Assembly (NCBI RefSeq): GCF_000020645.1
Contig: NC_011060.1
Coordinates: 2,252,409-2,284,408 of the forward strand
Length of the DNA: 32,000 nt
From: Pelodictyon phaeoclathratiforme BU-1
GTDB lineage: Bacteria > Bacteroidota > Chlorobiia > Chlorobiales > Chlorobiaceae
Direction: 5' to 3'
Translations under genes and position numbers: made by a program
Shown: piece after piece, positions 12,705 through 27,588 of the stretch
How positions within the stretch are numbered: the first letter of the stretch is position 1
How the letters are laid out: each line of letters starts with the position of its first letter
Notes under the pieces: model-generated
What the model was told of the DNA's origin: nothing
What the model saw: only the letters and a program-made list of their open reading frames with translations
Databases searched by the model: none

Positions 12705-13913
12705 ATGCCTACTTCAGACAAAGGACTCTGCAGTTCATGCGGTCTCTGTTCCAATCAGGCTTGGCCGGTTGAACAAAGTCTCCAAAGCTGTGTTTTTAAA
12801 AATGGCTGGCTCGGCGAAAGGGAGAAACAGCTTTTCGGGCGGGAACGCAAGCTCGATGATCCGGTTGAAATGCGCTTTGGCATCACACTTGACCGTTTTA
12901 CAGCTCAACTGAAACTGCCGCTACCCGGATCGCAGTGGAGCGGAATCATTACCCGAATGGCCATGAAGGCCTTTGAAGAGAAGCTTGTTGAAGGCGTTGT
13001 ATCGCTGCAGCACACTCCCGGCAACCATTTTTTCTCTCAACCGGTGTTAGCCCGAAACAGCGATGAGATCTACGCAACAAGAGGCAATAAACCGGTGCTC
13101 TCCCCACTCTTATCCTCCCTTGAAAGCGCATATCATCAGGGGCTGAAAAAAGTCCTTGTCATTGGAGCGGCATGTCACCTCCATACACTCCGGGATTTCA
13201 AGGAACGATTCGAATACCTGCAAGAGATGGAGCTCCTCACCATATGAATTCCCTGCATAGACAACGTCGCACGCTCAAAATGGCCGTGGATTCTGGAGAG
13301 AATGTCGAAATCACCCGATACCGCCTGCCATATGGAGTTCATGCAGGACTTCAGGATTCACATCCGTCACCTTGACGGCAGCATTGAAAAAGTCCCCTTC
13401 TTCAGCCTTCCGGAAGAGCTTTCAAATCCCGCCATCTTCCCCTCTGCATGTATGAGCTGCTTTGACTATCTCAACAGCCTTGCCGACATCACCGTAGGCT
13501 ATATCGGAGCAGAACTGAAGCCAAAGCAGAAGCGGCAATGGATTCTGGTACGAACCGAAACAGGGCAAAAACTGCTAAAGCTGATTGAAGCTGAACTCGA
13601 ACGGTTTCCGGAATCAGGCAAGTGGGAGTGCCGATCATTTGTCGAAAACACGACGAAACGCATCATCGAGAGCATGAAGGAGAGGGATAAAGAGTATTCA
13701 TCGAAAAGCAGAATCCCGCTCTGGCTCGGCAACCTGCTTGCAGGAGCGCTTGGCATGATCGGGCCAAAAGGGGTCGGGTTTGCCCACTACTCGGTTGACT
13801 TTCATCTGATCAGGCATTACTACTACCTCAAATTCCGCCACCCGGAGCGGATCGAAAAGCTGGTGCCACGGCATGTCCGGGTTATCCTTGAGGAATACGG
13901 ACTTCCCCTTTGA
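12705..13913 (+). pseudogene. FrhB/FdhB-family Fe-S flavoprotein (BciB / 7-hydroxymethyl-chlorophyll reductase-like) interrupted by an in-frame TGA at 13245-13247
   Basis: ORFs 12705-13247 and 13302-13913 are in the same frame (both starts are divisible by 3). The read-through gives ...[28 protein letters not shown].... The N-terminal Cys cluster is [10 protein letters not shown] and the C-terminal half has CMSCFDYLN. These are typical of coenzyme F420 hydrogenase beta-subunit-like proteins. Confidence 0.7.
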
Positions 13914-14063: not shown

Positions 14064-14450
14064 TTATACCAGTTGAATTCCTTCTCCATAAGCTGCTACC
14101 ACAGTATCTGAAGTAATCAACAACATTTCTTCTGTCCGGGCTTGTGTAATAAGCATCCGGTCAAAAGGATCTTTATGCAAGAAAGGAAGCATAGTTACAG
14201 CCACAGCATGTTCACTGCTGATAGCTAATTCCCGTTACGCATGAAACAAAAGCATGCGCCTGAACCGGAAGGGATCAACATTAAAATCAGAGCGCCCAAG
14301 TACGGATTTGATACTGATTTCCCAGAGACTTGCTGCACTGAAAAACAAATTATTTACCGGGTTAACAAGCATATCTTTGCATCCCTCCGGTAAAAGATCA
14401 GGTTGAGCTGCAGCCCAAAGAAGAATATGCGTATCAAGCAATAAATTCAC
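14064..14450 (-). pseudogene. vapC: PIN-domain toxin (VapC-like) with an in-frame TAA at 14235-14237
   Basis: The 71-aa ORF MNLLLDTHILLWAAAQP... is a PIN N-terminus. The same frame continues after the TAA as RELAISSEHAVAVTMLPFLHKDPFDRMLITQARTEEMLLITSDTVVAAYGEGIQLV*. That restores a normal ~128-aa VapC (HKDPFDR motif). Confidence 0.75.
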
Positions 14451-14704
14451 TGTGCATTTTCGTTAAATAACCCAGCAATCTCGCTACTGCCCATACGATC
14501 GAAATCTTCCGGCACAGAAATTTCACCAATCATAAAACCAAGGCGTTCTGAACTCCCAGTCATAGAGTCATAGGGTATCACTTTAACCATCGGTCGTCCC
14601 GCCTTGCTGATAATAAAAGCCTTGCCAAGCGCTGCCTGCTCAACCAATCTCACAAGCTGATTTTCCGCATCATGCAGCGTAATTGTGTGCATCGACGATA
14701 TCAT
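14447..14704 (-). CDS. Phd/YefM-type antitoxin paired with the PIN toxin
   Basis: 85 aa. HTITLHDAENQLVRLVEQAALGKAFIISKAGRPMVKVIP is a typical Phd/YefM N-terminus. There is a 4-nt ATGA overlap with the vapC start. An alternative start is at 14692. Confidence 0.8.
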   Translation of the reverse strand: MISSMHTITLHDAENQLVRLVEQAALGKAFIISKAGRPMVKVIPYDSMTGSSERLGFMIGEISVPEDFDRMGSSEIAGLFNENAQ

Positions 14705-15628: not shown

Positions 15629-15678
15629 CCCTTTCAGAGTTCCAGAAAACAGAAAGACAGAAGATCAGGAAGAGGGAC
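15629..15678 (-). promoter_or_regulatory. Candidate IMH / target-recognition flank of VR2
   Basis: 50 nt identical to 22383-22432 (the flank of VR1) and absent next to the TR. It spans the last codons (SPSS*) and 3' UTR of the target gene. Confidence 0.5.
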
Positions 15679-18600
15679 TGGAACGGACAACCCGAAAGCC
15701 AAAACCGCTGAGCCAGCTCGCCGGATGACTGAAGTACCGGGCAGAGCAACGCAGAACGCCGGGAACATAGCCCCAGGAACCGCCGCGCAACGCACGGGCA
15801 AGAGCGTATTTTTCGTGTATATCATCCGTCCACTCCCACACATTGCCAGCCATATCGTACAACCCTTCCGGAGTTGCACCTTCAGGATAGCGCCCAACCG
15901 GTGTTGTGGCTCCCTCATTTTGATTAAAATTTGCCAGTTTTGAATTAGGCGCTGTATTTCCCCACGGATATTCACGTCCATCCTCCCCGGCAGCAGCATA
16001 TTCCCACTCGATTTCTTTGGGCAATCGATAAATATTAGCAATCCTGCCTTCGCTTTCCAGAAGAGAGAGCCACAAGCAATAGGCTTTGGCTGCATACCAG
16101 CTTATATCCATCACCGGTTGTTCCTCCTTGTTAAATCGCTTGTCGTCATCCGATTCAGAGCGGAAAAGCTTTGCCAGATCTCGTTTATCCTGAAGATAAT
16201 CGCTGAATCCATTAATGCTGTTCGCCATTTTCTGTAAGTGGTTGTGGTACAATTCCAGGGTAACAGCATCAATATCGGGCACCTTTCCTGACTGTAGGTA
16301 ATTGAGGAACTGCCGGTACAACTCGTTGGTAACCGTATATTTAGCGACATAAAGATCTGGCATCTTTTCAAGCTTCTCAGTCAACGAGAAAGCAAATGTG
16401 CCACCTTTTATCAGAATGTACTCTGCATGAAGTTTGTCAAATAAAACATTGTTTCTTCCTGATTCGATAAACGTCTTCACTATTGCAAGTGCTTCAGGCT
16501 TGCCAATGATTTTCAGGCACTCCATGATATATCGCTGCCGGTTTGGCGTGGTCTGAAGGTCAAACAACTTCTTTTGCAAGGCATCGATCTTCCGCTGTGG
16601 AGCCTCTTCGACAAGGGTGACGAGCAAGTCCTGCTGCTTTGATGTCAAGTTTTCCGTAACCGGCGAATCGAAAAGCTTCTGCATGAAGCTGTCAAAAAGC
16701 TCTTCATTTTCAACATGGCCGATAAAAAAGCGAAGCGGTTCTTGCCACCAATCGTCTCCAAACCTGGTAACAATGGTGTCGAGATAGTCTGGCCGGTACA
16801 TATTTTTGAGCAGTTGAACACCCGCAAGGTACTCACGGAATGATTTGTGCCGAAAAACATACTCCTTGTCGCCATACTCCACCAGCACCCCGGCCCGGTC
16901 CACAAGATTTTTGCAGAACTCCCCTGCGGGAAGAGAATTGTAGAGCGTGTCGAGCAGCTTTTGCATTTTCTGCTGCATTGCAATCCGGTCAGCTTCGTCT
17001 GTTTTCAGCTCTTCCTGCATCCAGAGAGAAACCGGGCTCAGTACTCGCCGAGCATCTTTGGCTGCAAGCAGCGGATAGATTCCCCTGCGACGGTCACGAT
17101 AATCGAGCATATAATTCAATGCAGCATCATAGAGTTCTGAACGCCCTGCTGGCAGAAACTCCCTCTCTTTCCAGAGCATTGCCATAATCTGCAAGAGCAG
17201 GGGGACACCTGCCAGAGAGTGCATACTCCTGTTTTTTTCCTGCGCGAGAAACGTAATAACTGCGTCAGCTTTTTGCGCCGCTTTTTGAGCGGCCTGTTGT
17301 TCCTGCCGAGCTCTCAACTCCGGTTCATCCCGAGCACTGAGAGGTATCTCCCGAAAAAATGCTGCACTAAACCAAAGATGCAAAAACTCAGCCTGTTTTT
17401 CCTTGGTAAAGTCCATGATATCGGCCCGCAGATGGCTTGCCTCAAGCTCGATGCCATCCCCCTTCCGGTAACCTGTGCTTCGGGAGGTAACCACAAATCG
17501 GGCATTTGTAAACCTTGAAACCGTTCGGTCAATCCAGTCACAAGCAGCCTTCCGATCATCGACGTTGCTGATTTCATCCAGTCCATCAAGGAGTACAAGG
17601 GTTGAGTCCTCACCAAGCCAGCCCGCAAAAAGGTTTTCTTTAATTTTGAGAAAATATTTTTCAGACCATGCGGAAAGAGCTGCCGGCAATGAGGGATAAC
17701 CGGTATCACTCTTGTTGATATCACGCAACGGGAGGTAAAAAACATTGACTGGTTCACTAAAACCAAATTCATGACATCTACCGTTATCAAGGCATGAAAG
17801 TGCATAATATTTGAGCAATGTTGTTTTACCAGAACCCGGATCGCCAATAACCAGTAGCAAGTGATGCTTTTGAAAAACAAAACTCATCACTTCTTCAGGG
17901 GCACGAACGCGCTCTTCTTTTTTGGGTTCACAGAGATCGCCCTCAGTATGGGATCGTGCTTCGCAGCGCCATGTATCAGAAAGACTCAACGAAACAAAGG
18001 TATCCTTATGCCTTACAGAAAAACTCTCGATTGCCGGAGAACCCGAAAGGTTGGTATTGCCAAGTTGCTCTGTCAGCGTTGAGTGGTAGAGCTGGAGAAG
18101 CGAATCTGTGTTGAAATCAAGTGGTTGATACCTGTTTTTCATTGAGGTATCATCACCACATTCTTTTGAACAGAACCACCGGTGAACCTGTATATCAAGC
18201 TGATGAGCAAGTTTTTCCCGGAACTCATGACGCTCGTCATACTCCTCTATCAGCGCATTCGATTGTAGTGATTCCCTGAAGCGATCAAGTGCCTCAATCT
18301 GTTCGATAGTAACATCCTTCCTCCGGTATGGCACATTTGAGAAATAGAGCATGACCAATTTTCCGGCTGCCATCATTCTCTCAACCTCTTCAACCGCCCC
18401 GCCTGGAGCAACACCAGTACCTGTGCCAATGCGTGTCCAGAAAATACCGATAGCAAAATCACATTCATCAACAATCTGTTTATTGAGTATCCCCTGCACC
18501 CGCCCCCCGGTTTCAGGCGCTGCATGTGATTCCCATAACACCGCTTCGAGCATCAGCGGACGCTGTGGCCGAGCATTCCATTTCTTTATGACATCTTCCG

Positions 18601-18688
18601 CCATTTCACGCTCAGCAACAACATCAGAGGGTGATGCGACAAGTACCTTTATGATCCGAATATTTTTATCACTCATTCTTTCTATCAT
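15665..18688 (-). CDS. STAND NTPase: N-terminal DUF4062/NDT/TIR-like domain - NACHT - C-terminal FGE-sulfatase (SUMF1, CLec-fold) domain; DGR target 2
   Basis: 1007 aa. Walker A GDPGSGKT (17822-17845) and NACHT-type Walker B LVLLDGLDEI. The C-terminal ~250 aa carry FGE-family motifs (YILIKGGTF, VSWYAAKAYCLWLS-like, RLPKEIEWEYAA, GLYDMAGNVWEWT, RGGSW, GFRVVRS). It is a paralog of 22419-25568. An alternative start is at 18676 (MSDK...). Confidence 0.85.
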   Translation of the reverse strand: MIERMSDKNIRIIKVLVASPSDVVAEREMAEDVIKKWNARPQRPLMLEAVLWESHAAPETGGRVQGILNKQIVDECDFAIGIFWTRIGTGTGVAPGGAVEEVERMMAAGKLVMLYFSNVPYRRKDVTIEQIEALDRFRESLQSNALIEEYDERHEFREKLAHQLDIQVHRWFCSKECGDDTSMKNRYQPLDFNTDSLLQLYHSTLTEQLGNTNLSGSPAIESFSVRHKDTFVSLSLSDTWRCEARSHTEGDLCEPKKEERVRAPEEVMSFVFQKHHLLLVIGDPGSGKTTLLKYYALSCLDNGRCHEFGFSEPVNVFYLPLRDINKSDTGYPSLPAALSAWSEKYFLKIKENLFAGWLGEDSTLVLLDGLDEISNVDDRKAACDWIDRTVSRFTNARFVVTSRSTGYRKGDGIELEASHLRADIMDFTKEKQAEFLHLWFSAAFFREIPLSARDEPELRARQEQQAAQKAAQKADAVITFLAQEKNRSMHSLAGVPLLLQIMAMLWKEREFLPAGRSELYDAALNYMLDYRDRRRGIYPLLAAKDARRVLSPVSLWMQEELKTDEADRIAMQQKMQKLLDTLYNSLPAGEFCKNLVDRAGVLVEYGDKEYVFRHKSFREYLAGVQLLKNMYRPDYLDTIVTRFGDDWWQEPLRFFIGHVENEELFDSFMQKLFDSPVTENLTSKQQDLLVTLVEEAPQRKIDALQKKLFDLQTTPNRQRYIMECLKIIGKPEALAIVKTFIESGRNNVLFDKLHAEYILIKGGTFAFSLTEKLEKMPDLYVAKYTVTNELYRQFLNYLQSGKVPDIDAVTLELYHNHLQKMANSINGFSDYLQDKRDLAKLFRSESDDDKRFNKEEQPVMDISWYAAKAYCLWLSLLESEGRIANIYRLPKEIEWEYAAAGEDGREYPWGNTAPNSKLANFNQNEGATTPVGRYPEGATPEGLYDMAGNVWEWTDDIHEKYALARALRGGSWGYVPGVLRCSARYFSHPASWLSGFGFRVVRSSPSS
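15679..15800 (-). repeat. DGR variable repeat VR2 (remote target)
   Basis: Aligns without gaps to TR 21850-21971. I count 20 differences, all at positions where the TR has T on the printed strand (A on the coding strand). Confidence 0.8.
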
Positions 18689-18759
18689 TTATCAATCATT
18701 TTCTGACAAAAATAACGCCGTCAATGCCGTCCAATTTCATAACACAACATCTCAGAAGT

Positions 18760-20158
18760 TCATGACGGAGAAGCAGAACGAACAACCCGAAAACCAATCT
18801 CGGAGGAACTATAAAACGGACTCTGAAAACCGGGAGCTGAGCAGCGCAGATAATCGGGAGTAGTGTCCCACGAACCGCCTCTCAAGAAAAAACGCTCTTT
18901 TTCTTTCTCATTCTCATTCCTGTGTTCCATCCACTCCCACACATTTCCTGCCATATCATACAACCCGTCAGGAGTCGCACCATCGGGATAAACACCAACC
19001 AGTGTTGTTGTCTCTTTCTTGCTCATCTTATAATTTGCACGTTGCTGCGTTGGAGAAGAACTGCCCCATGGATAGGGGCGTTGTTCCTTGCCGCTGGCAC
19101 AATATTCCCACTCAATCTCTGTCGGCAGCCGATACAATCCTGCATCCATGCATCCCGTTTCAAGACATGAAAGCCAGTAGCAATACGCTTTTGCGGCATA
19201 CCAGCTTACCCCAACCACCGGTTGATGATCCTTGTTGAATCGGTCATCATCTTCATAAACGGAACGTAAGCGCTCTGTCAAATCCGACTCCCCCTGAAGA
19301 TAGTCGTAGAATCCCGTCTCGTGAATTTTGTTTGCATAAAGCAAGCAACTTTTGCCTAAAAATTTCGGTAGACAGTACCTCAATAAAAGAGCCCTTGCCT
19401 GACAGGTAGTTGATAAACTGTCGATAGCGAGAGTTAGTCACAGCATATTTTGCCATGTAGAGATCAGTCACAACTTCGGACTTGTCTGTCAAAGAGTAGG
19501 TGAATGTACCTCCCTTGATCAGGATATAATGTGCACCAAGCTTGTCAAGCAGCATAAAGTTTATCCAGCGCTCTACCAACAAAACTTTATCTGCGTAAGA
19601 GATATCATCAAGATCCAACCCTCGTTGTTTCATAAGATCGGGCTGAGTCGCCTTAAACTCCATATAATTGTCAAGAATCACTTTAGGCCCAGGAATTGCA
19701 TCATTAATCTTGAGTGCATGCAAAACATCCCTGATACACTTGATCAACTTCTTAATATCATTGTCATGAGATTTGACATCTTGACCCGATATATCCGAAA
19801 TAAACTGTTGATAACGATGGGGATCCCTGTCAAGAATAAGCGACACTTTAGACTTCTGCAACTTTGAACCAAATCGTTTGGCACCAAGAAAAAGCCCTAG
19901 CTCAAAGGGCATATTAAATCTGGGCAGCTTGGTCTTTTTATCAGGTTCTGTTCTTGATATATCATGGATTCCACAACAACACTCTTCAATGATTCGATTG
20001 ATTTTTTCTATGCGTACCTGGCCGCCATCATCAAATTCGTAAGCACAGCGAGGACGAAAACCACACTTATAGACCGTAAAAAGAATAGCATCAAAAAACG
20101 GAATGTACTCTTTGTCAAAAGGGCAATTAATAAACACATTGAGGTTATGTGGTGGCAT
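18760..20158 (-). pseudogene. Frameshifted gene: N-terminal NDT/TIR-like Rossmannoid domain fused to an FGE-sulfatase (CLec-fold) domain; no NACHT
   Basis: ORFs 19253-20158 and 18760-19383 overlap in different frames and together rebuild one FGE domain (YILIKGGTFTYSL ... VSWYAAKAYCYWLS ... GLYDMAGNVWEWM ... RGGSW ... GFRVVRS). The frame switch maps to a tandem GCAAGCAA at 19341-19348. Confidence 0.7.
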
Positions 20159-20240
20159 GGCAAACGCAATTATGATTTATCCTGTACCGTAGCAACACTT
20201 GGATTTAATGACCTGTTGCTCCAATTTTCACCAATCATCA

Positions 20241-20468
20241 CTACGGGACATCCTCTCCCGATCGTGAATCCTCTACAGCCTCCAGAATATCTTTCGTTGC
20301 TGCTCTTGTTTTCACCCCTTTGACATCAAAAGGAGAATTTGAAAGCTGTTTATACACAACGGCAAATTGTTCACCACTCCGTTTTTTGATAATCACCTCT
20401 TCCGTACGAGCAAGATCAAACACCTTGGCGAATTTCTTTCGCGCTTCAGAATAGCTGTAAACTTTCAT
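20241..20468 (-). CDS. Orphan Phd/YefM-like antitoxin
   Basis: 75 aa. MKVYSYSEARKKFAKVFDLARTEEVIIKKRSGEQFAVV is a Phd/YefM-type N-terminus. Only ~80 nt separate it from the next gene, so there is no room for a cognate toxin. Confidence 0.65.
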   Translation of the reverse strand: MKVYSYSEARKKFAKVFDLARTEEVIIKKRSGEQFAVVYKQLSNSPFDVKGVKTRAATKDILEAVEDSRSGEDVP

Positions 20469-20610
20469 AACGTCTACGTCATAATTGTGATACCAATTCT
20501 ACACAATATCAGCGATGGAATCAAGCCATCGTTTCAAAACCAGTCAATACCAGATTTTTATGGATACTCGTGCCTTGAATAACAATCAGTTCTCAAAAAG
20601 TTACAAGCTG

Positions 20611-21642
20611 TCAGCTCTTTTCCACCAGCCCCAACGAGCGCAACAGATTGCGGGTATCGGCCTGCCGGGCGTGACCAACCCACCCGGCAAGGCTTTTCTG
20701 CAAGGTTTCCGGCTTGGCAAGCAGGGTGCATTGTATCCGTTTTTTTGCTCTCCGAACATTTGCTGAAGGAAGTAACCGGTAGCTCTGAAAAACTTTTTGC
20801 CCGAGAAAGCACTTCCCTTCTGTTGCCGGGTAAAGCTCTGTTCTCCCTGAATTAAGCGTCAATCTGAATTGTTGCAAAAACTCTTCGATTGCTTTTTTCC
20901 ACTCCCACAATTCATCCTTGCTATCGGAAAACAAGACGTAATCATCAACGTATCTTACGTAGCCTTTGCATCGCAACACCTCTTTTACGTAGTGATCCAG
21001 AAAGCTGAGGTAGTAGTTGGCAAAAAACTGGCTGGTCAGGTTCCCGATAGGCAGCCCTTTTCTCCGTTCATGAGGGGTAAAAAGGGTGTCACCGGGGAAA
21101 TAGTGAAAATGCTCTGCCTGTATGTTACTGTTATCAATAATGGTATCAATAAGCCACAAAGTGTCAGCGCAGGCTATTTTTCTGCGAAGCAACGATTTGA
21201 GTATCTCGTGATCGATTGATGGAAAATATTTCCGGATATCACACTTCAGCACATAAGCATACTTTTTCAGATAGTGCTGGTAGCGCTCTATGGCCTTGTG
21301 TGTTCCCTTGGCCGTTCTGTTGGCATAGGTGTCGAAAATAAAGCTCCGTTCAAGAAGAGGGCCAACAATAGTGATCAGGGCATGATGCACAACGCGGTCT
21401 TTAAAGGGAGCTGCGCTGATCATTCTTGGTTTTGGCTTGTAGATGCTGAAGGTTTTGTATGAACCGGGCTGCCAGGTTTTCGTTCGCAACTCCGAAAGAA
21501 TCTGCCAGAGGTTCTCTTCCAGAAAGGTGAAAAAGTGCAGCACCGACTGGTTTTCGCGCTTTCCTTTCGCCGCTTTTTGGGCTGCTGAAAGCACATTTTC
21601 GAAGGTTACAATGCTCTGAAAAAGGTTTTTGCTGGTTTTCAT
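20611..21642 (-). CDS. Diversity-generating retroelement reverse transcriptase
   Basis: 343 aa. RT motifs include LPIGNLTSQFFANYYL (the DGR-type I/LGxxxSQ motif) and the catalytic YVRYVDD. The size, the N-terminus (NLFQSIVTFENVLSAAQKAAKGKR) and the adjacent TR and avd fit DGR RTs. Confidence 0.9.
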   Translation of the reverse strand: MKTSKNLFQSIVTFENVLSAAQKAAKGKRENQSVLHFFTFLEENLWQILSELRTKTWQPGSYKTFSIYKPKPRMISAAPFKDRVVHHALITIVGPLLERSFIFDTYANRTAKGTHKAIERYQHYLKKYAYVLKCDIRKYFPSIDHEILKSLLRRKIACADTLWLIDTIIDNSNIQAEHFHYFPGDTLFTPHERRKGLPIGNLTSQFFANYYLSFLDHYVKEVLRCKGYVRYVDDYVLFSDSKDELWEWKKAIEEFLQQFRLTLNSGRTELYPATEGKCFLGQKVFQSYRLLPSANVRRAKKRIQCTLLAKPETLQKSLAGWVGHARQADTRNLLRSLGLVEKS

Positions 21643-21651
21643 CGTTTTGCC

Positions 21652-21699
21652 AGAAAAAAAACAGGCCGCTTTTTCAATTACTTACTCAAGCGACCTGTT
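21652..21699 (-). terminator. Intrinsic-terminator-like hairpin between the TR/spacer and the RT start
   Basis: On the minus-strand RNA, AACAGGUCGCUU (21699-21688) pairs with AAGCGGCCUGUU (21671-21660). That is 12 bp including one G-U, with a 16-nt loop, followed by U7. It ends 11 nt before the RT ATG. Confidence 0.4.
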
Positions 21700-21849
21700 T
21701 TATGGGTACTGTTCGTGCATGTTCCACTGAGTGCAATGGCAACATGCCGCAGGAGAAAGAGCCCGGGATGTCATGCCCAAAAAACTGTCCGTTATTCCTT
21801 GAAAGAACGGCATCATAATGGGCTTTAACACGCATCGAAAGGGGCATGA

Positions 21850-21974
21850 TTGGAACGGACAACCCGAAAGCCAATATTGTTGTTCCTGTTCGCCGGATGA
21901 TTGTTGTTCCGGGCAGAGCAACGCAGATTGTCGGGATTATTGTTCCAGGAACCGCCGCGCAACGCACGGGCAGA
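21850..21974 (-). repeat. DGR template repeat (TR)
   Basis: Non-coding 125-nt copy of the VRs between avd and the RT. In the target frame it reads ...[31 protein letters not shown]..., with 11 AAY codons. The boundaries are approximate (+/- 5 nt). Confidence 0.85.
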
Positions 21975-22037
21975 TCAGTTACCGGCTCTTTTCCATCATT
22001 CTGAACAAACGATAATTACCATTTATCAACGACTTAT

Positions 22038-22373
22038 TCAAGCTTTTTTTATCCATCCGCCCAGCATCTTCCCCAATTCTGAAATCTGGCTGCTCCCAAA
22101 CTCATAGGAGTTCAAGCTGATAAATTTCATGTCAAAACTCAATCGAACCAGAATGCGCAAACGCGTCAGCACCTCATCGGCCTGCTCCAGCAATGGTCGT
22201 TTGACGTTCCGCATATTGGCAACTGCCACAAGCTCTGTAAACTCGAGTATAGAATTTTCGATACGCACAGCAATACTGAACCGGTAGCTTTTGGGAAATT
22301 TCCCAGTATGCAGCAGCAGCCATTTCGAAAAATCGTAGGCCTTTTTGACGATCAGCATTTCATGATTCTGCAC
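22038..22373 (-). CDS. avd: Accessory variability determinant (Avd-like four-helix-bundle protein)
   Basis: 111 aa. KKAYDFSKWLLLHTGKFPKSYRFSIAVRIE ... ELGKMLGGWIKK matches my recollection of Avd / 23S-rRNA-IVS-family proteins. Its position between the VR and the TR is canonical. Confidence 0.8.
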   Translation of the reverse strand: MQNHEMLIVKKAYDFSKWLLLHTGKFPKSYRFSIAVRIENSILEFTELVAVANMRNVKRPLLEQADEVLTRLRILVRLSFDMKFISLNSYEFGSSQISELGKMLGGWIKKA

Positions 22374-22382
22374 AAATTTTTT

Positions 22383-22432
22383 CCCTTTCAGAGTTCCAGA
22401 AAACAGAAAGACAGAAGATCAGGAAGAGGGAC
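22383..22432 (-). promoter_or_regulatory. Candidate IMH / target-recognition flank of VR1
   Basis: 50 nt identical to 15629-15678. The TR flank diverges here (coding sense: VR ...CCGTTCCAGTCCCTCTTCC versus TR ...CCGTTCCAATCATGCCCCT). Confidence 0.5.
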
Positions 22433-25400
22433 TGGAACGGACAACCCGAAAGCCAACATTGCCGCTCCTGTGCGCCGGATGAAGGTCGTACCGGGCAGAG
22501 CAACGCAGACCGTCGGGATACTTGCTCCAGGAACCGCCGCGCAACGCACGGGCAGATTTAAAATACTCATCCGACGTATTGTTTTCGTATAAATCTTCCA
22601 TCCACTCCCACACATTGCCTGCCATATCATATAGCCCCTCCGGTGTAGCGCCATCGGGATAGCGCCCTACAGGAGTTGTGGCGCCTTCATTACTATCATA
22701 ATTGGCTCTAGTGGTTGAGGGCTCCTCCTCGCCCCAAGGGTATGTTCTGTTCTCTTTGCCACCTGCGGCATATTCCCACTCCTTTTCTGTGGGCAAATGA
22801 TAAAGGGTGCCATCCTGACCATTGCTCTCAAGCAACGAAAGCCAGAGGCAATAGGCCTTGGCGGCATACCAGGTTACACCCATCACCGGTTGATCTTCCT
22901 TGTTGAATCGCTTGTCGTCATCATAAAAAGAAGCAAGAAGCTTTACCAGCGATTCTTCACCCTTGAGATAATCGCCAAACCCCTCAATCTCCCCAGCCTC
23001 AGATCGTAGAGTTTTTGTATACAATTCAACCGATACATCCTTGGCAAATACAGGCTCTCGGGAATCCAGATAAGCAATAAATTGCCGGTACAACTTGTTG
23101 GTAACCGTATATTTGGCAACGTAAAGGTCTGGCACTGTTTCCTGCTTCTCAGTCACGGAGAAGGTAAAGGTACCTCCCTCGATAAGGATGTATTGCGCAT
23201 CGAGTTCATAGGGATTGTATCTGACAGAAATTGCCTTCACACTAACATTCACCTTACAGACGATGTCAGCGGTGATATCAGAGGCAATTTTAACCCCTGG
23301 AATTTCATAAGCAAGACGCAGAATATCGGCGTCTTTGGTGCAGTTAGCGTCAATGAACTTCTGTACAGCTTTGACAGCTTCCGGCTTACCGATGGTTTTC
23401 AAGCACTCCAAGAGATATCGCTGCCTATTTGGCGTTGTTGCCGGGTCAAGCAACTTCTTTTGCAAGGCGTCAACCTTCCTCTGGGGAGCCTCCTCAACAA
23501 GGGCAACAAGCAAGTCCTGCTGCTTTTGAGTCAAGTTTTCTGTAACCGGCGAATCAAAAAGCATCTGCATAAAGCTGTCGAACAGTTCCGCATCATCAAC
23601 ATGGCCGATAAAAAAGCGAAATACCTCCTGCCACCAGTCGTCACCAAAGCGGGTAACAAGCGTGTCAAGATAACCTGGCCGGTGCATGTTTTTCACAAGC
23701 TGCACACCCGCCAGGTACTCTCTGAATGATTTGTGCCGGAAAACATACTCTCGGTCACCATATTCCACGAGCACCCCGGCCCGATCAACAAGGTTACGGC
23801 AGAACTCCCCTGCGGGAAGCGAGTTGCAGAGGGTATCAAGCAGTTCCTGCATTTTTAACTGCATGTCAATTCTACCAACCTCGTCCTTTTTAAGCTCCTC
23901 CTGCATCCAGAGTGAGACCGGACTCAGAACGCGCCGGGCATCTTCTGCCCCAAGCAATGGGGATATTCCTCTACGCCGGTCACGATAATCGAGCATAAAA
24001 TTCAATGCCGCATCATAGAGCTTCAACCGGCTACCCGGCATATATTCTCGCTCTTTCCAGAGCATGGCCATAATCTGCAACAGCAAGGGAATCCCTGCGA
24101 GTGTTTGCATACTTCTATTTTTTTCCTGTGCCAGAAACGCAATAAGAGCATCTGCTTTTTTCGTAGCCACATGTTCCTGCTGGCTTCGCCACGCCGCCTG
24201 ATATCCTGCTGGAGGAATCTCTCCCAAGTATGCAGCCTTGAACCACTGCTGTAAAAATTGCGCCTGCTGCTCTTTTGTAAAATCCATGATATCAGCCCTC
24301 AAATGGCCAGCTTCAAGCTCAATGCCATCCCCTTTCCGATAACCCGTGCTTCGTGACGTCACAACAAAACGGGCATTGGTAAATCCACCAACCGTGCGGT
24401 CTATCCAGCCACAGACCGCTATCCGGTCGTGAACATCGCTGATTTCGTCGAGACCATCGAGAAGCACCAATGTTGACGGCTTGTCAAGCCAGCCGGAAAA
24501 GAGTGTTTCTTCAATCTTGAGAAAATGTTTTTCCGACCATGCCGCCAGGTTTTCCGATAATGACATGTAGCCGGTATCACTTTTCTTGAGTTCACGCAAC
24601 GGAAGAAAAAAAACATTGACTGGTTCACGAAAGCCAAACTCCTGATAGCGTTTGTTATCGAAGCAGGAGAGTGCATAATATTTGAGCAAAGTTGTCTTTC
24701 CCGAACCGGGATCACCGATAACGAGCAGTAAAAGATTATGCTGAAAAACAAAGCTCATCACCTCTTCAGGGGTACTGTTGCGTTCATCCTTCTGCGGTTC
24801 GCACAAAGCCTCCCCTGCACGAAATCGCTCTTCGCACCGCGATGAACCTGAGAGAGTTAACGAAACGAAGGTGTCGGATAGTTTTACTGAAAAACTTTCA
24901 AGGGCGGGAGAGCCTGTCAGGGTGATATTTCCGAGTTGTTGTTTCAATGTGGATTGGTAGCGGAACAAATCAGCCGCAGCGTTGCGGGTATGCGAGCAAA
25001 TACGATTGCCTGAAAAAACGACATCCGAATTTTTTTGAGCGAACCAGTTCTGAATCTGAAGGTCAAGATGTGTGACAAGATCGCTCTTGAACATGGAGAG
25101 ATCATCATATTCCCACAAAAGAAGATAATTTTGCAATGTTTTCCGGAAAGTCTCAAGCTCTCCAACCTGCCGGGAAAATTCTGCCACCTTGCCTGCATCA
25201 GAAGTGTCAAGAGGATACTTTGCTCTGGAAAAATAGAGCATGACCTGTTTTTCATCGTTCATCAGGCGCTGTACCTCTTCAACTGCTCCTCCCGGCGCAA
25301 CACCTGTATCGGTGCCAATCCTTGTCCAAAAAATAGCAATGGCAAAATGGCATTGATCTACGAACTGTCTGTTGAGAATTCCCTGCGTCCGTTCCCCGCT

Positions 25401-25568
25401 TTGAGGAGCAGCGCGTTCCTCCCACAATACAGGATCAAGTATGAGTTCAGACTCTGGATGTCGGTGATTCCAGCCCAATATTACCTCTTTGGCAATATCC
25501 CGCTCTTCTGCTACATCTGAAGGCGAAGCAACAAGAACTTTTATTTTGCGATACAATTTATCACTCAT
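22419..25568 (-). CDS. STAND NTPase: N-terminal DUF4062/NDT/TIR-like domain - NACHT - C-terminal FGE-sulfatase (CLec-fold) domain; DGR target 1
   Basis: 1049 aa. GDPGSGKTTLLKYYALSC, LVLLDGLDEI and FTNARFVVTSRSTGYRKGDGIELEA are shared with the 15665-18688 paralog. The C-terminal FGE motifs are YILIEGGTF, VTWYAAKAYCLWLS, GLYDMAGNVWEWM, RGGSW and GFRVVRS. Confidence 0.85.
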   Translation of the reverse strand: MSDKLYRKIKVLVASPSDVAEERDIAKEVILGWNHRHPESELILDPVLWEERAAPQSGERTQGILNRQFVDQCHFAIAIFWTRIGTDTGVAPGGAVEEVQRLMNDEKQVMLYFSRAKYPLDTSDAGKVAEFSRQVGELETFRKTLQNYLLLWEYDDLSMFKSDLVTHLDLQIQNWFAQKNSDVVFSGNRICSHTRNAAADLFRYQSTLKQQLGNITLTGSPALESFSVKLSDTFVSLTLSGSSRCEERFRAGEALCEPQKDERNSTPEEVMSFVFQHNLLLLVIGDPGSGKTTLLKYYALSCFDNKRYQEFGFREPVNVFFLPLRELKKSDTGYMSLSENLAAWSEKHFLKIEETLFSGWLDKPSTLVLLDGLDEISDVHDRIAVCGWIDRTVGGFTNARFVVTSRSTGYRKGDGIELEAGHLRADIMDFTKEQQAQFLQQWFKAAYLGEIPPAGYQAAWRSQQEHVATKKADALIAFLAQEKNRSMQTLAGIPLLLQIMAMLWKEREYMPGSRLKLYDAALNFMLDYRDRRRGISPLLGAEDARRVLSPVSLWMQEELKKDEVGRIDMQLKMQELLDTLCNSLPAGEFCRNLVDRAGVLVEYGDREYVFRHKSFREYLAGVQLVKNMHRPGYLDTLVTRFGDDWWQEVFRFFIGHVDDAELFDSFMQMLFDSPVTENLTQKQQDLLVALVEEAPQRKVDALQKKLLDPATTPNRQRYLLECLKTIGKPEAVKAVQKFIDANCTKDADILRLAYEIPGVKIASDITADIVCKVNVSVKAISVRYNPYELDAQYILIEGGTFTFSVTEKQETVPDLYVAKYTVTNKLYRQFIAYLDSREPVFAKDVSVELYTKTLRSEAGEIEGFGDYLKGEESLVKLLASFYDDDKRFNKEDQPVMGVTWYAAKAYCLWLSLLESNGQDGTLYHLPTEKEWEYAAGGKENRTYPWGEEEPSTTRANYDSNEGATTPVGRYPDGATPEGLYDMAGNVWEWMEDLYENNTSDEYFKSARALRGGSWSKYPDGLRCSARYDLHPAHRSGNVGFRVVRSSPSS
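22433..22557 (-). repeat. DGR variable repeat VR1
   Basis: Gap-free alignment to TR 21850-21974. I count 14 differences, 13 at TR adenines (coding strand) and one at a non-adenine (22521). Confidence 0.85.
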
Positions 25569-25861
25569 TCTTCCTCGAGCCCCATTAATCGTCTTGTATG
25601 ATAAAGAGAGATAACAACAACCCGTGATACTTTTTCGTCTACTCTGTAAACAATCCGGTACTCTCCATGCAACAACTCACGAAGAGAATCTTCAGAAAAT
25701 TCCGGAACAACTCTTCCGATATAAGGGAAATCAGCAAGTTTCATAACGGATTGCCTGACAGATTCCGCCCAATTTCTGGCTGCACCGGGTTTATCAACAG
25801 CAATAAACCGCACAACCTCTTCAATCTGAGAGGCCGCACGTTCTGAAAATTCGACGATCAT
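25565..25861 (-). CDS. parE: ParE/RelE-superfamily toxin
   Basis: 98 aa. The architecture ...FPYIGRVVPEF ... LRELLHGEYRIVYRVDEKVSRVVVISLYHTRR is typical of ParE-like toxins. There are 4-nt overlaps with the upstream antitoxin and with the downstream NACHT gene. Confidence 0.8.
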   Translation of the reverse strand: MIVEFSERAASQIEEVVRFIAVDKPGAARNWAESVRQSVMKLADFPYIGRVVPEFSEDSLRELLHGEYRIVYRVDEKVSRVVVISLYHTRRLMGLEEE

Positions 25862-26148
25862 CGCTTTTCAGCTTCGGCAATGATCTTTTCAAGCGAGGCA
25901 AAAACCTCCTTTGCTGGTACAGTGCGGTTGTTGCGATAATCTTCAAGCCCTTCGGTAACCGACTGCATAAATGCTATTTGATCAAGCATCTGTTGATATG
26001 ATTCCGCATCAAGCAGCACAGCCGAACCTCTCCCTGTCCGCGTTAACAGCAGCGGTTGTTTGCTGACGCTCAGCTCCTCCATATACCGTTCGATATTGTT
26101 TCCGAAATCTGTTAATGGAGCAACGTTCCTGACTTGAATGGTATGCAT
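25858..26148 (-). CDS. Phd/YefM-type antitoxin of the ParE toxin
   Basis: MHTIQVRNVAPLTDFGNNIERYMEELSVSKQPLLLTRTGRGSAVLLDAESYQQM is Phd/YefM-like. I prefer the ATG at 26148 over the track start at 26208. Confidence 0.8.
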   Translation of the reverse strand: MHTIQVRNVAPLTDFGNNIERYMEELSVSKQPLLLTRTGRGSAVLLDAESYQQMLDQIAFMQSVTEGLEDYRNNRTVPAKEVFASLEKIIAEAEKR

Positions 26149-26223
26149 GGCATTCACAAGAAGTAATAAGGTGACACTATCTTGTACAAGGTAACTCCAT
26201 TCATACAAAAATCATTACCCGTT

Positions 26224-26365: not shown

Positions 26366-26750
26366 TCAAGCAATTTTCGGAGGCTGGATTGCCGAGGAGT
26401 TGAAGGCTACAAGCTTGTGCCAGTTGATAGCACCACTGTCGTCGCAATACTCGATACTGAATTGGCGGGTAAATTTATTGAGCATCCTGTCATAGGAGTC
26501 CTGAAACTCTTCGCTTTTTTCCTGGGCCTTGTGACCCAGCGGGTCGATAAGCTCGGTGTAGAGATTGGGATCTGAAGAGATAAACTCCCAAAAAGTCTGG
26601 CCGCAATATTTGAAATAGTCGCCCTGATCGGGGGTACTAACTCTGCCGTAACAGCAGCCATTAACGGCAACAACCTATTCTTTTCTGATGAAAGGTGCCG
26701 ATGTTCTCTTCAACGTAGGTCAATACGTCGTTCAGGATAAGTGGTTTCAT
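26366..26750 (-). pseudogene. Remnant of a probable type II restriction endonuclease (frameshifted, apparently missing its middle)
   Basis: AAGGAGGAG RBS plus an ATG at 26750, overlapping the methyltransferase 3' end, gives MKPLILNDVLTYVEENIGTFHQKRIGCCR*. A startless frame (26674-26366) reads ...GCCYGRVSTPDQGDYFKYCGQTFWEFISSDPNLYTELIDPLG...*. The RE assignment comes from context and remembered motifs only. Confidence 0.35.
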
Positions 26751-27588
26751 GCTCCTCCTTTTGTTCCAGCAGATAGAGTTCAACCGGTTTCAGCTCCGTT
26801 TTTACCATGTCGTAGTACTCTGGCACAATTTCAATGCCGATAGAGTTTCTTCTCATTCTTTGCGCTACCGCATTGGTTGTTCCTGACCCCATGAATGGAT
26901 CGAGCACAGTATCTCCCTCTTTGGTAAAGAGCTTGATAAACCATTCCGGAAGCCCTTCAGGAAAGGCTGCGCTGTGTTTTTTGTTGTTGCATTCTGTGGC
27001 GAGGTGCAGCACGTTGGTCGGATAGGCCATCTCCCGATCCAGCCAGTTTGAGATATTTTTTCCGAACCCGCTGCCGACCTTCGATTCATCACGCGTTTTG
27101 TCGGTCTCACTCAGGTTTTTCAGGCGGGTTTTCGACCAATCGCCCATTGGCACCATAACGGCTTTCTGGTCCATATAAAAGTGCTTGCTTTTATTGAACT
27201 GGATCAACCGTTCCCAGGAATCCCTGAATCGGTTTGGCCATTTACCGGGATAACAGTTTTTTTTATGCCAGATAAATTCTTCTGTCCAGAACCAGCCCTG
27301 CTTCCTCATTTCAAGAATGAGTTCCATCACGTAGGTACTCCGTTCGCCATTGACAACCTTCTCCTTGATGTTCAGGACAAAGGTACCTGTTGGTTTCAGC
27401 ACCCTCAGAAGCTGCAGGGATATCGGTAAAAACCACTCAACATAATCGTCCGGATGAAAGCCGCCATAGGTTTGTTTTCTCTGGTCAGCATAGGGCGGGG
27501 AGGTAAATATCAGGTCTACCGAATCATCCGGCAACGTTTTGAGCAGTTGTGTGCAGTCTCCAAGGTAGAGATCCGTTTTTGTTTCCAT
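26710..27588 (-). CDS. Beta-class DNA methyltransferase (N4-cytosine or N6-adenine)
   Basis: 292 aa. Motif IV TSPPY precedes motif I DPFMGSGTT (beta-class order). The SPPY form hints at m4C specificity. Confidence 0.85.
   Translation of the reverse strand: METKTDLYLGDCTQLLKTLPDDSVDLIFTSPPYADQRKQTYGGFHPDDYVEWFLPISLQLLRVLKPTGTFVLNIKEKVVNGERSTYVMELILEMRKQGWFWTEEFIWHKKNCYPGKWPNRFRDSWERLIQFNKSKHFYMDQKAVMVPMGDWSKTRLKNLSETDKTRDESKVGSGFGKNISNWLDREMAYPTNVLHLATECNNKKHSAAFPEGLPEWFIKLFTKEGDTVLDPFMGSGTTNAVAQRMRRNSIGIEIVPEYYDMVKTELKPVELYLLEQKEEHETTYPERRIDLR

Follow-up and report, generated by a model that had tools for sequence, protein, structure and literature searches.

The prototype of the diversity-generating retroelements (DGRs), that of BPP-1 (mtd–avd–TR–brt), is phage-borne and has one target, a tail-fibre protein with a C-type-lectin fold; its order is the target with its C-terminal variable repeat (VR), avd, the template repeat (TR), a spacer and the reverse transcriptase (RT), and its mutagenesis is adenine-specific. 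Cassettes of avd, TR and RT with targets on the same strand are architecture B1 of Wu et al., and the Avd-containing architecture B as a whole accounts for 68 % of DGRs (PMC5758913). In clade 5D, for which the host list includes Chlorobi and an example is Thiohalocapsa PB-PSB1 DGR 3, there are usually two targets, with a central NACHT/nSTAND domain, one C-type-lectin (CLec) domain and often an uncharacterised N-terminal extension (PMC10907252). Antigen sensing has been proposed for such NACHT–CLec targets, and was stated to be untested (Doré et al., 2024; PMC10907252). From the green sulfur bacteria, DiGReF lists Chlorobium phaeobacteroides DSM 266 with two VRs and Pelodictyon phaeoclathratiforme BU-1 with four, as entries in a list, with neither target architecture nor RNA elements analysed (PMC3521204). 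The present analysis concerns a 32,000-nucleotide stretch of P. phaeoclathratiforme BU-1 (NC_011060.1, positions 2,252,409 to 2,284,408; hereafter the window), in which a preliminary description, made by reading the sequence, had reported a complete DGR.

It is very likely that this green sulfur bacterium carries, at this locus, a chromosomal DGR whose cassette (target–avd–TR–RT) is of the commonest type and which has an additional target at a distance. When both VRs are pooled, 35 out of 36 TR/VR mismatches are at TR adenines. The element is real, complete and ordinary for the DGR class, and nothing tested departs from the definition of a DGR except the hairpin after the VR, which is not universal. 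The order of its parts, the adenine-specific mutagenesis and the lectin-fold target with a C-terminal VR are shared with BPP-1. In contrast to the BPP-1 element, that in the window is chromosomal and cellular, and instead of a tail-fibre protein it has two targets that are large predicted cytoplasmic NTPases. On its architecture, the window DGR would belong to the published clade 5D type, which it matches in having two paralogous NACHT targets, a single C-terminal CLec with the VR, an N-terminal extension and a phototrophic sulfur bacterium as host (Doré et al., 2024). Whereas the N-terminal extension of clade 5D is uncharacterised (PMC10907252), that of the window targets is assignable, below threshold, to DUF4062; and unlike the clade 5D comparison system, the window locus has no neighbouring peptidase or WD40 partner. 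It resembles the green sulfur DGRs in DiGReF (PMC3521204) in phylum, in having several VRs and in having paralogous targets of the FGE-sulfatase type.

On the minus strand, target 1 with VR1 comes first, then avd, the TR, which is non-coding, a spacer of 205 nt and the RT, which is intact; VR2, in target 2, is 4.8 kb beyond the RT. Every element of the order given in the preliminary description (VR1, Avd, TR, a spacer of ~200 nt, RT) was found where it had been placed. The span of 20611–22557 was too small, as the target bodies and VR2 give a locus of 15629–25568. Its features are listed here in the minus-strand order.

22419–25568, minus strand: target gene 1, an open reading frame (ORF) of 1049 aa with DUF4062-like, NACHT and FGE-sulfatase/C-type-lectin parts and with VR1 at its 3′ end.
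22430–22557, minus strand: VR1, an ungapped match to TR 21848–21975, in the last ~42 codons of target 1.
22383–22432, minus strand: VR1 3′ flank, a recognition element resembling the initiation of mutagenic homing (IMH) site, identical to the VR2 flank.
22038–22358, minus strand: avd, 106 aa from the ATG at 22358 (111 aa from the GTG at 22373).
21982–21994, minus strand: GGAAAAGAGCCGG, candidate upstream strand of a cPRT-stop-like duplex, just upstream of the TR.
21848–21975, minus strand: TR, the non-coding template repeat, from local alignment to the VRs.
21643–21847, minus strand: spacer (the Sp part of the DGR RNA), 205 nt between TR and RT, with no notable ORF and with four conserved helices.
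21654–21701, minus strand: terminal spacer hairpin and U8, with a 14 bp stem, −21.1 kcal/mol.
20611–21642, minus strand: DGR RT, 343 aa, full length.
15665–18688, minus strand: target gene 2, an ORF of 1007 aa, paralogue of target 1, with VR2 at its 3′ end.
15676–15800, minus strand: VR2, an ungapped match to TR 21848–21972.
15629–15678, minus strand: VR2 3′ flank, identical to the VR1 flank.

The TR bounds reported previously were 21974→21850, and the alignment gives ungapped homology to VR1 at 21975→21848 and to VR2 at 21972→21848. Tabulated by TR base, 14 of the 15 mismatches between VR1 and the TR are at A, the exception being T21939>G, and all 21 of those in VR2 are at A. There are 28 A in the 125 nt of the TR (22 % A), for which the hypergeometric probability of the adenine bias is P = 4e-10 in VR1 and 3e-18 in VR2. 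Mismatches are not spread across the four TR bases, and the pattern expected of mutagenic retrohoming is present, with adenine-specific differences at 14 out of 15 and 21 out of 21 positions. One of these, A21850>G, is common to VR1, VR2 and every VR in the related loci, and because of this it is not counted as mutagenesis; it is the fixed IMH/IMH* difference between TR and VR. Once it is omitted, the earlier hand counts, 13 out of 14 for VR1 and 20 out of 20 for VR2, are reproduced exactly. Each constant segment of the repeat, 5′ and 3′, is present exactly three times in the window, against 0 expected by chance, and VR1 and VR2 differ from one another at 20 positions, which are adenine-templated.

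There are 26 mutable adenines, at 21875–21944, all of them at codon position 1 or 2 and none at the third position, and the TR ends 3′ in a 23 nt A-free tract (21852–21874). By inspection, a stop codon cannot be reached by any A substitution in the TR. The translations proposed earlier agree with those found here, with 11 AAY codons in the TR, SKY/G/YDL/H/SGN/V in VR1 and GYV/D>G/V/YFS/S/R>W/LSG/F in VR2, and the figure of 15^11 variants for the AAY codons is arithmetically correct (8.65e12). With the addition of the four single-A codons (gAc, cAt, Agg and Att), the ceiling becomes 1.66e15 protein variants per VR.

The RT contains the motifs IGNLTSQ (residues 199–205) and YVDD (residues 231–234), together with KPKPR, in which R73 corresponds to R74 of the BPP-1 enzyme (bRT), I199, which corresponds to bRT I181, and the CDI aspartate D135, which corresponds to bRT D138. 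The DGR signature [I/V/L]GxxxSQ replaces the QGxxxSP of group II and retroviral RTs, and bRT R74 and I181 promote adenine mutagenesis (10.1101/2020.04.29.068544). The Pfam family RVT_1 is matched at 1.6e-19. In a phmmer search against the PDB, the best solved-structure match is 8ub7 (E = 4.7e-59 over residues 3–334), compared with 1e-16 for the group II RT 6ar1. The depositors name this entry just "Reverse transcriptase"; from the aligned sequence it is presumably the Bordetella phage bRT. The BPP-1 and window enzymes can be aligned over their full length and share the equivalents of R74, I181 and the catalytic Asp residues. The cryo-EM structure of the bRT–Avd–RNA complex is described in a preprint (10.1101/2023.10.23.563531).

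It is extremely improbable that the RT is of another class (group II intron, retron, Abi or DRT) and that the three repeats are ordinary duplicated 3′ gene ends. Generic models do match the enzyme, namely TIGR04416 (group II, 132 bits), retron St85 (58 bits) and the RT/DRT models of PADLOC, but the first two scores are far under the curated cut-offs of 300 and 235 bits, and in NCBIfam the RT reaches the cut-off of no model for a group II, retron, Drt or Abi enzyme. No Rfam family, including those for intron and retron RNA, reaches its gathering threshold in the window, and there is likewise no msr/msd; the one sub-threshold match, near the TR and spacer, is a chance one. The motif is IGxxxSQ, not QGxxxSP, 8ub7 is the best PDB match by about 40 orders of magnitude, avd adjoins the TR, and ordinary duplication cannot yield adenine-only mismatches. 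By profile cut-offs, PDB match and motif, the RT does not group with the group II intron, retron or Abi enzymes.

The product of avd, a family shared with BPP-1, matches the NCBIfam equivalog NF033474, 'diversity-generating retroelement protein Avd', at 108 bits against a cut-off of 80 (E = 2e-31), and Pfam bAvd at 1.7e-20. The ORF described as Avd-like at 22373→22038 is thereby identified as Avd. Its start is a different matter: because the profile match begins at residue 6 of the GTG-started ORF and the public gene calls are of 106 aa, the ATG at 22358 is probably the true start, rather than the GTG at 22373.

A scan of one genome per species for relatives of the RT gave 43 loci. The 16 best are all from metagenome-assembled genomes (MAGs) of Chlorobiaceae, with 79–93 % identity, the window RT being no more than 93 % identical to that of any species representative, and this points to a Chlorobium-like green sulfur bacterium as the source of the window. 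Twelve Chlorobiaceae loci have a long TR/VR pair and the same layout, with one to four VRs each, and adenine-only substitutions are seen in 17 of their 20 TR/VR pairs, with one non-A substitution in each of the other three. Among more distant relatives of the RT (36–50 % identity), which come from Chloroflexota, Cyanobacteria, Desulfobacterota, Bacteroidota, Omnitrophota and other phyla, the TR/VR pairs show a strong adenine bias in 15 out of 16 examined, and in some the TR follows the RT. For practical purposes, the presence of such pairs beside distant relatives can stand in for assigning the RT to the DGR clade.

Lineage-specific changes in the TR permit the direction of transfer to be followed. 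The TRs of three of the related loci (L001, L003 and L004) differ from the window TR at 8–9 positions; their non-A TR bases are present in all of their own VRs, and the window VRs have the window base. Position 21899 became A in the TRs of L003 and L004, and it is variable in their VRs. Because these lineage-specific non-A changes in the TR are mirrored in the VRs, the flow of information from TR to VR appears to have continued at both target loci after the lineages split. This copying in the relatives, with the 20 adenine-templated differences between VR1 and VR2, bears out the earlier statement that the element has been active at both loci, in the historical sense.

Two further observations were made among these relatives. 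In a group from Chloroflexota and others (L022–L039), the order is target–RT–TR, and the targets, judged by eye from P-loop motifs, have NACHT-like, other P-loop NTPase or other long N-terminal regions, with the same C-terminal lectin fold. In addition, there are two DGRs per MAG in the pairs L004/L007, L001/L040 and L016/L043, in which the RTs are ~80 % identical and the TRs are ~125 nt and ~91 nt in length. The genome of the window may therefore hold a second DGR outside the 32 kb.

Beyond the VRs, the 50 nt flanks (22432→22383 and 15678→15629) are 100 % identical, and beyond them similarity is lost immediately. Between the VR1 and VR2 loci the identity also takes in the VR itself from its start, except at A-templated positions, and just upstream of the VR the DNA again diverges. 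The flank runs CCAGTCCCTCTTCCTGA...CTGGAACTCTGAAAGGG, and that of VR1 contains the last four codons, the stop codon and ~35 nt of 3′ untranslated region. It is pyrimidine-rich on the coding strand, with CTG every 7–8 nt (CTGA…CTGT…CTGT…CTGG…CTGA), a periodicity that is kept across the Chlorobiaceae loci as the bases in between vary. After the 23 nt A-free tract, the TR side reads CCAATCATGCCC and the VR side CCAGTCCCTCTTCC. In the 12 related loci shown, the VR-specific flank is kept after every VR, whereas every TR instead continues CCAATCATGCCC. BPP-1 likewise has a TR 3′ end that is unlike its VR 3′ end, and the arrangement is consistent with the expected IMH/IMH* pair, in which the flank would be the recognition element. 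A hairpin or cruciform after the VR was considered and rejected, as the flanks fold no better than shuffled sequence and the inverted repeat GTTCCAG/CTGGAAC is not maintained in three of the related loci (L005, L006 and L016).

The spacer was aligned for 14 Chlorobiaceae loci, with 82 % mean column identity, and the RNAalifold consensus has 58 pairs. In this alignment 98.5 % of cells are paired, compared with 42–49 % when partners are slid by 1–3 columns, and compensatory changes occur at 10 pairs, against 4.7 ± 1.2 in column shuffles (0 out of 500 reach 10). A structured spacer RNA is thus supported by covariation in the alignment. Its elements would match one-for-one the template:primer duplex, Avd-binding stem-loop and cPRT stop of BPP-1, by analogy. 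First, UCAUGCCC (21849–21842) pairs with GGGCAUGA (21778–21771) in what may be the template:primer-like duplex, in which the adenosine at 21771 would serve as primer and the first base to be copied would be 21850 or one just 5′ of it. This predicted first template base coincides with the fixed A/G difference at 21850, beyond which there is no VR variation. Second, a hairpin of 11 bp at 21812–21786, capped by a CAAG tetraloop, is a putative Avd-binding-like stem-loop. Third, GGAAAAGAGCCGG (21994–21982) pairs with spacer 21766–21752, with one bulged C, and by comparison with the BPP-1 avd:Sp duplex (10.1101/2023.10.23.563531) this is a candidate 'cPRT stop'-like duplex. It is predicted at the equivalent place in 13 out of 13 loci, at −17 to −23 kcal/mol and with modest z-scores of −1.1 to −3.0; its changes are absent or one-sided, and this may reflect conservation of sequence rather than of pairing.

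A covarying hairpin at 21748–21715 and an A-rich stretch follow. The spacer then closes with a terminal hairpin (21701–21654), which has a 14 bp stem, AAAACAGGUCGCUU/AAGCGGCCUGUUUU, followed by U8, and ends 11 nt before the ATG of the RT. Its folding energy of −21.1 kcal/mol corresponds to z = −4.1, and it is kept in 14 out of 14 Chlorobiaceae loci, among which one pair is compensatory and four have changes in one strand alone. The structure resembles an intrinsic terminator or attenuator, which would set the 3′ end of the DGR RNA and limit expression of the RT, or else an RT-binding element. The BPP-1 spacer is shorter, 140 nt, whereas the 205 nt spacer in the window includes this terminator-like hairpin with U8.

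From these elements a mechanism can be proposed. The avd–TR–spacer RNA would fold, with GGGCAUGA pairing just 3′ of the part of the TR that is copied, as suggested by analogy with BPP-1 and by the conserved pairing. The RT–Avd complex would then prime cDNA from a spacer adenosine and copy the TR, and, as the mismatch pattern shows, random bases are inserted opposite template adenines only. The cDNA would replace the homologous 3′ end of either target, for which the observed VR-specific flank of ~50 nt may be the mark. In this way just 26 adenines, those of the 11 AAY and four single-A codons, would be rewritten. In the protein, binding of a ligand at the variable face of the lectin domain would lead to NACHT oligomerisation and so to activity of the N-terminal effector, probably NAD+ depletion as in abortive infection.

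Several observations weigh against this reading. One VR1 mismatch is at T (21939). There is no GC-rich hairpin of the BPP-1 type downstream of the window VRs, in contrast to BPP-1 itself, and the flanks fold with z = −0.3 and +0.5 relative to shuffles; GC-rich inverted repeats downstream of the VR are reported for 34 % of DGRs, so their absence is the majority condition (PMC5758913). The priming site and the cPRT-stop-like duplex were placed purely by analogy. Finally, 6–8 near-identical assemblies per VR all carry the window alleles of VR1 and VR2, with the exception of one contig (L056).

This last observation would fit a fossil DGR, in which the parts are recognisable and no longer home, the VR differences go back to earlier activity, and the targets evolve as ordinary paralogues. 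The alleles are the same in all independent public assemblies of the strain apart from that contig, which is chimeric, and the VR-like end of a neighbouring third lectin gene has decayed from the TR, which suggests that targets can drop out. However, the exact RT protein is on 18 public contigs, of which the ten compared are 99.97–100 % identical to the window over up to 21 kb, and the sequences are consensus sequences from a near-clonal population (one single-nucleotide polymorphism (SNP) and one indel in 21 kb). For this reason identical VR alleles say little, and neither show nor exclude current activity. Against a fossil, none of RT, Avd, TR and spacer is disrupted, the catalytic and signature residues are present, just one non-A mismatch in 250 nt of VR points to almost no ordinary drift since the last homing, and the relatives show copying from TR to VR after lineage divergence. 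The intact machinery and the single non-A difference argue against a long-dead element, and a fossil is distinctly unlikely.

The TR is identical in all of the covering public assemblies but L054 (JGI 3300034014), which has one SNP, C>A on the minus strand, at 21853 in the A-free 3′ end. The exceptional contig for VR2, L056 (JGI 3300014786, Ga0169450_104359), has 13 substitutions relative to the window, all in VR2 and all A-templated. It was considered as a case of recent homing and rejected, as its VR2, at the equivalent of window 15703–15733, is a chimera in which the 5′ half of VR2 is joined to the 3′ half of VR1. It is either an assembler cross-over between repeats, the contig ending near both VRs, or a VR1-to-VR2 gene conversion. 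A chimera of this type mimics adenine-restricted variation and can be mistaken for DGR activity. In a scan of metagenome contigs for further VR alleles, the VR-specific flank pattern gave none, and the constant 5′ segment gave just VRs and TRs of more distant DGRs.

The reading of the locus as a real DGR leads to its targets. Target 1 matches the Pfam families NACHT (3e-14, residues 281–445) and FGE-sulfatase (8e-48, residues 793–1044), and target 2, which is 64 % identical to it in amino acid sequence, has the same DUF4062-like–NACHT–CLec architecture, with NACHT at 1.8e-12. In both, the VR is the last ~42 codons of the FGE-sulfatase domain, which has the C-type-lectin fold. Both have intact Walker motifs, in target 1 Walker A GDPGSGKT at 285 and Walker B LVLLDGLDE at 367, and neither has a hydrophobic segment resembling a transmembrane one; they are predicted to be cytoplasmic. 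The tripartite layout of proteins resembling NOD-like receptors (NLRs) is present, that is, an N-terminal domain, NACHT with intact Walker A and B, and a C-terminal CLec. Their most probable function would be that of hypervariable intracellular sensors. The NACHT–lectin core has 2181 representative relatives at E ≤ 1e-30; among the relatives listed, at least nine match over the full length, and many others share just residues ~200–1045 behind a different N-terminus. Swapping of this kind would be the effector swapping that is typical of NLR-like defence proteins.

The N-terminal domain is the part from which an effector function might be read. Its ~180 aa match just DUF4062 (PF13271), at 18.7 and 20.1 bits against a gathering threshold of 24.7 (E = 0.002 in target 1 and 7e-4 in target 2), and 21 out of 34 homologues of the domain match DUF4062 at ≤ 1e-3. 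An AlphaFold2 model has a pLDDT of 87 and an alternating beta/alpha fold. Foldseek matches to it are weak and generic (plant TIR, nucleoside deoxyribosyltransferase and other flavodoxin-like folds, TM-score 0.4–0.5), so that the predicted structure is compatible with a TIR-like fold and is not diagnostic of one. In the alignment of homologues, E98 is invariant and W49/E50 are nearly invariant; these residues are reminiscent of the Q/W/E motif and catalytic Glu (KpSwz E97, Eva01 E87) of the DUF4062 NADases. DUF4062 has been described as a TIR-like NADase that has a Q/W/E motif and a catalytic Glu and takes part in defence by abortive infection (10.64898/2026.05.01.722283; 10.64898/2026.06.25.731849). 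The placing of a DUF4062-like domain before NACHT would be shared with Swarozyc (10.64898/2026.05.01.722283), Evangelion (10.64898/2026.06.25.731849), TEP1 and NWD1. Swarozyc and Evangelion have fixed auxiliary or WD40 sensors, whereas the sensor in the window would be a DGR-diversified lectin fold, and the two preprints make no mention of DGRs or lectin sensors (10.64898/2026.05.01.722283; 10.64898/2026.06.25.731849).

It is possible, and is proposed tentatively at well short of an even chance, that the targets are NLR-like immune receptors with a lectin tip reprogrammed by the DGR and with NAD+ depletion by a DUF4062 TIR-like NADase. The sub-threshold DUF4062 scores and the generic Foldseek matches count against this, as does the fact that the sensor and effector functions are assigned purely by analogy. 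Rather unlikely is the alternative that the DGR is real but its NACHT–lectin targets are non-immune, with a part in endogenous signalling or regulation or in the recognition of cell–cell or environmental ligands. For the DGR targets of cyanobacteria, a part in regulation has been suggested (PMC7517822), and for no NACHT–CLec DGR target is there an experiment (PMC10907252). No PADLOC phage-defence model matches the whole protein; the N-terminal part matches PDC-S60 (1e-18 and 3e-22), and the only other match is a weak one to mad8. However, an effector, a NACHT domain and a variable sensor are the architecture of bacterial NLR-like defence proteins, the N-terminal family is shown as an abortive-infection NADase in the 2026 preprints, the N-terminal domain is swapped among relatives with the same NACHT–CLec core, as is typical of defence proteins, and the surroundings of the locus include toxin-antitoxin pairs and a DNA methylase.

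These toxin-antitoxin and methyltransferase genes, all on the minus strand, are a Phd/ParE pair (14235–14704), a lone Phd-like gene just after the RT (20241–20468), a Phd-like gene with an ORF of 71 aa (25565–26208) and an apparently orphan N6/N4 DNA methyltransferase (26710–27588). The DGR is in a stretch of slightly lower GC content (0.43–0.48, compared with 0.51–0.53 in the leu operon), and the setting looks like a defence island. The locus is flanked on one side by an ilv/leu operon and an F420-hydrogenase-like gene and on the other by formyltransferase-family, cation-efflux transporter and PAP2 genes. These flanking genes agree with a location on the chromosome. A phage origin was rejected, as the flanking genes are of this chromosomal housekeeping kind and no phage RT is more than 41.5 % identical to that in the window.

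Between target 2 and the RT there is a third lectin-fold gene (18760–20158, minus strand). Its N-terminus is TIR-like, by a sub-threshold match to PF10137 (E = 0.003), and is joined directly to an FGE/CLec domain, without NACHT. In nine public assemblies the gene is intact, encoding 465 aa, and in the window it is split by an extra T at 19340 (TT>TTT). It also has I199L at 19564, and these two are the only differences from the assemblies L050–L052 over 21 kb; the Logan contig L058 (SRR29904084) has the same two differences and may be the same dataset. A third VR in this gene was considered and rejected, as mismatches between its VR-like end and the TR fall on all four bases (A16, C12, G5, T4), and at ≤3 mismatches the end lacks both constant repeat segments. 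The gene may be a decayed DGR target. Outside the DGR, the F420-hydrogenase beta-subunit-like gene (12705–13913, plus strand; FrhB_FdhB_N and FrhB_FdhB_C) has an in-frame TGA at 13245–13247, after which the frame is open. Two separate genes are called there in two out of three covering assemblies (L050 and L051), and L052 has no gene call. Possible explanations are a pseudogene, read-through of the stop or its recoding.

As a DGR, the locus adds nothing conceptually, as its cassette type, adenine mutagenesis and lectin-fold and NACHT targets in phototrophic sulfur bacteria have been published. Its value is as a clean and compact example, with both VRs almost free of non-adenine drift, and with natural replicates in the 12 Chlorobiaceae loci with TR/VR pairs (one to four VRs), which show concerted evolution; the covariation in the spacer can be mapped onto the BPP-1 cryo-EM elements. 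Modestly new are the tentative DUF4062 N-terminus, the conserved, hairpin-less 50 nt VR flank, the terminator-like end of the spacer and the clean concerted evolution. If the DUF4062 reading is true, NADase activity would offer an enzymatic read-out for a role of DGR-diversified NACHT–lectin proteins as hypervariable sensors in immunity. A somatically diversifying receptor would then be wired to a defined, assayable cell-suicide effector, and the question of adaptive-like immunity would become testable.

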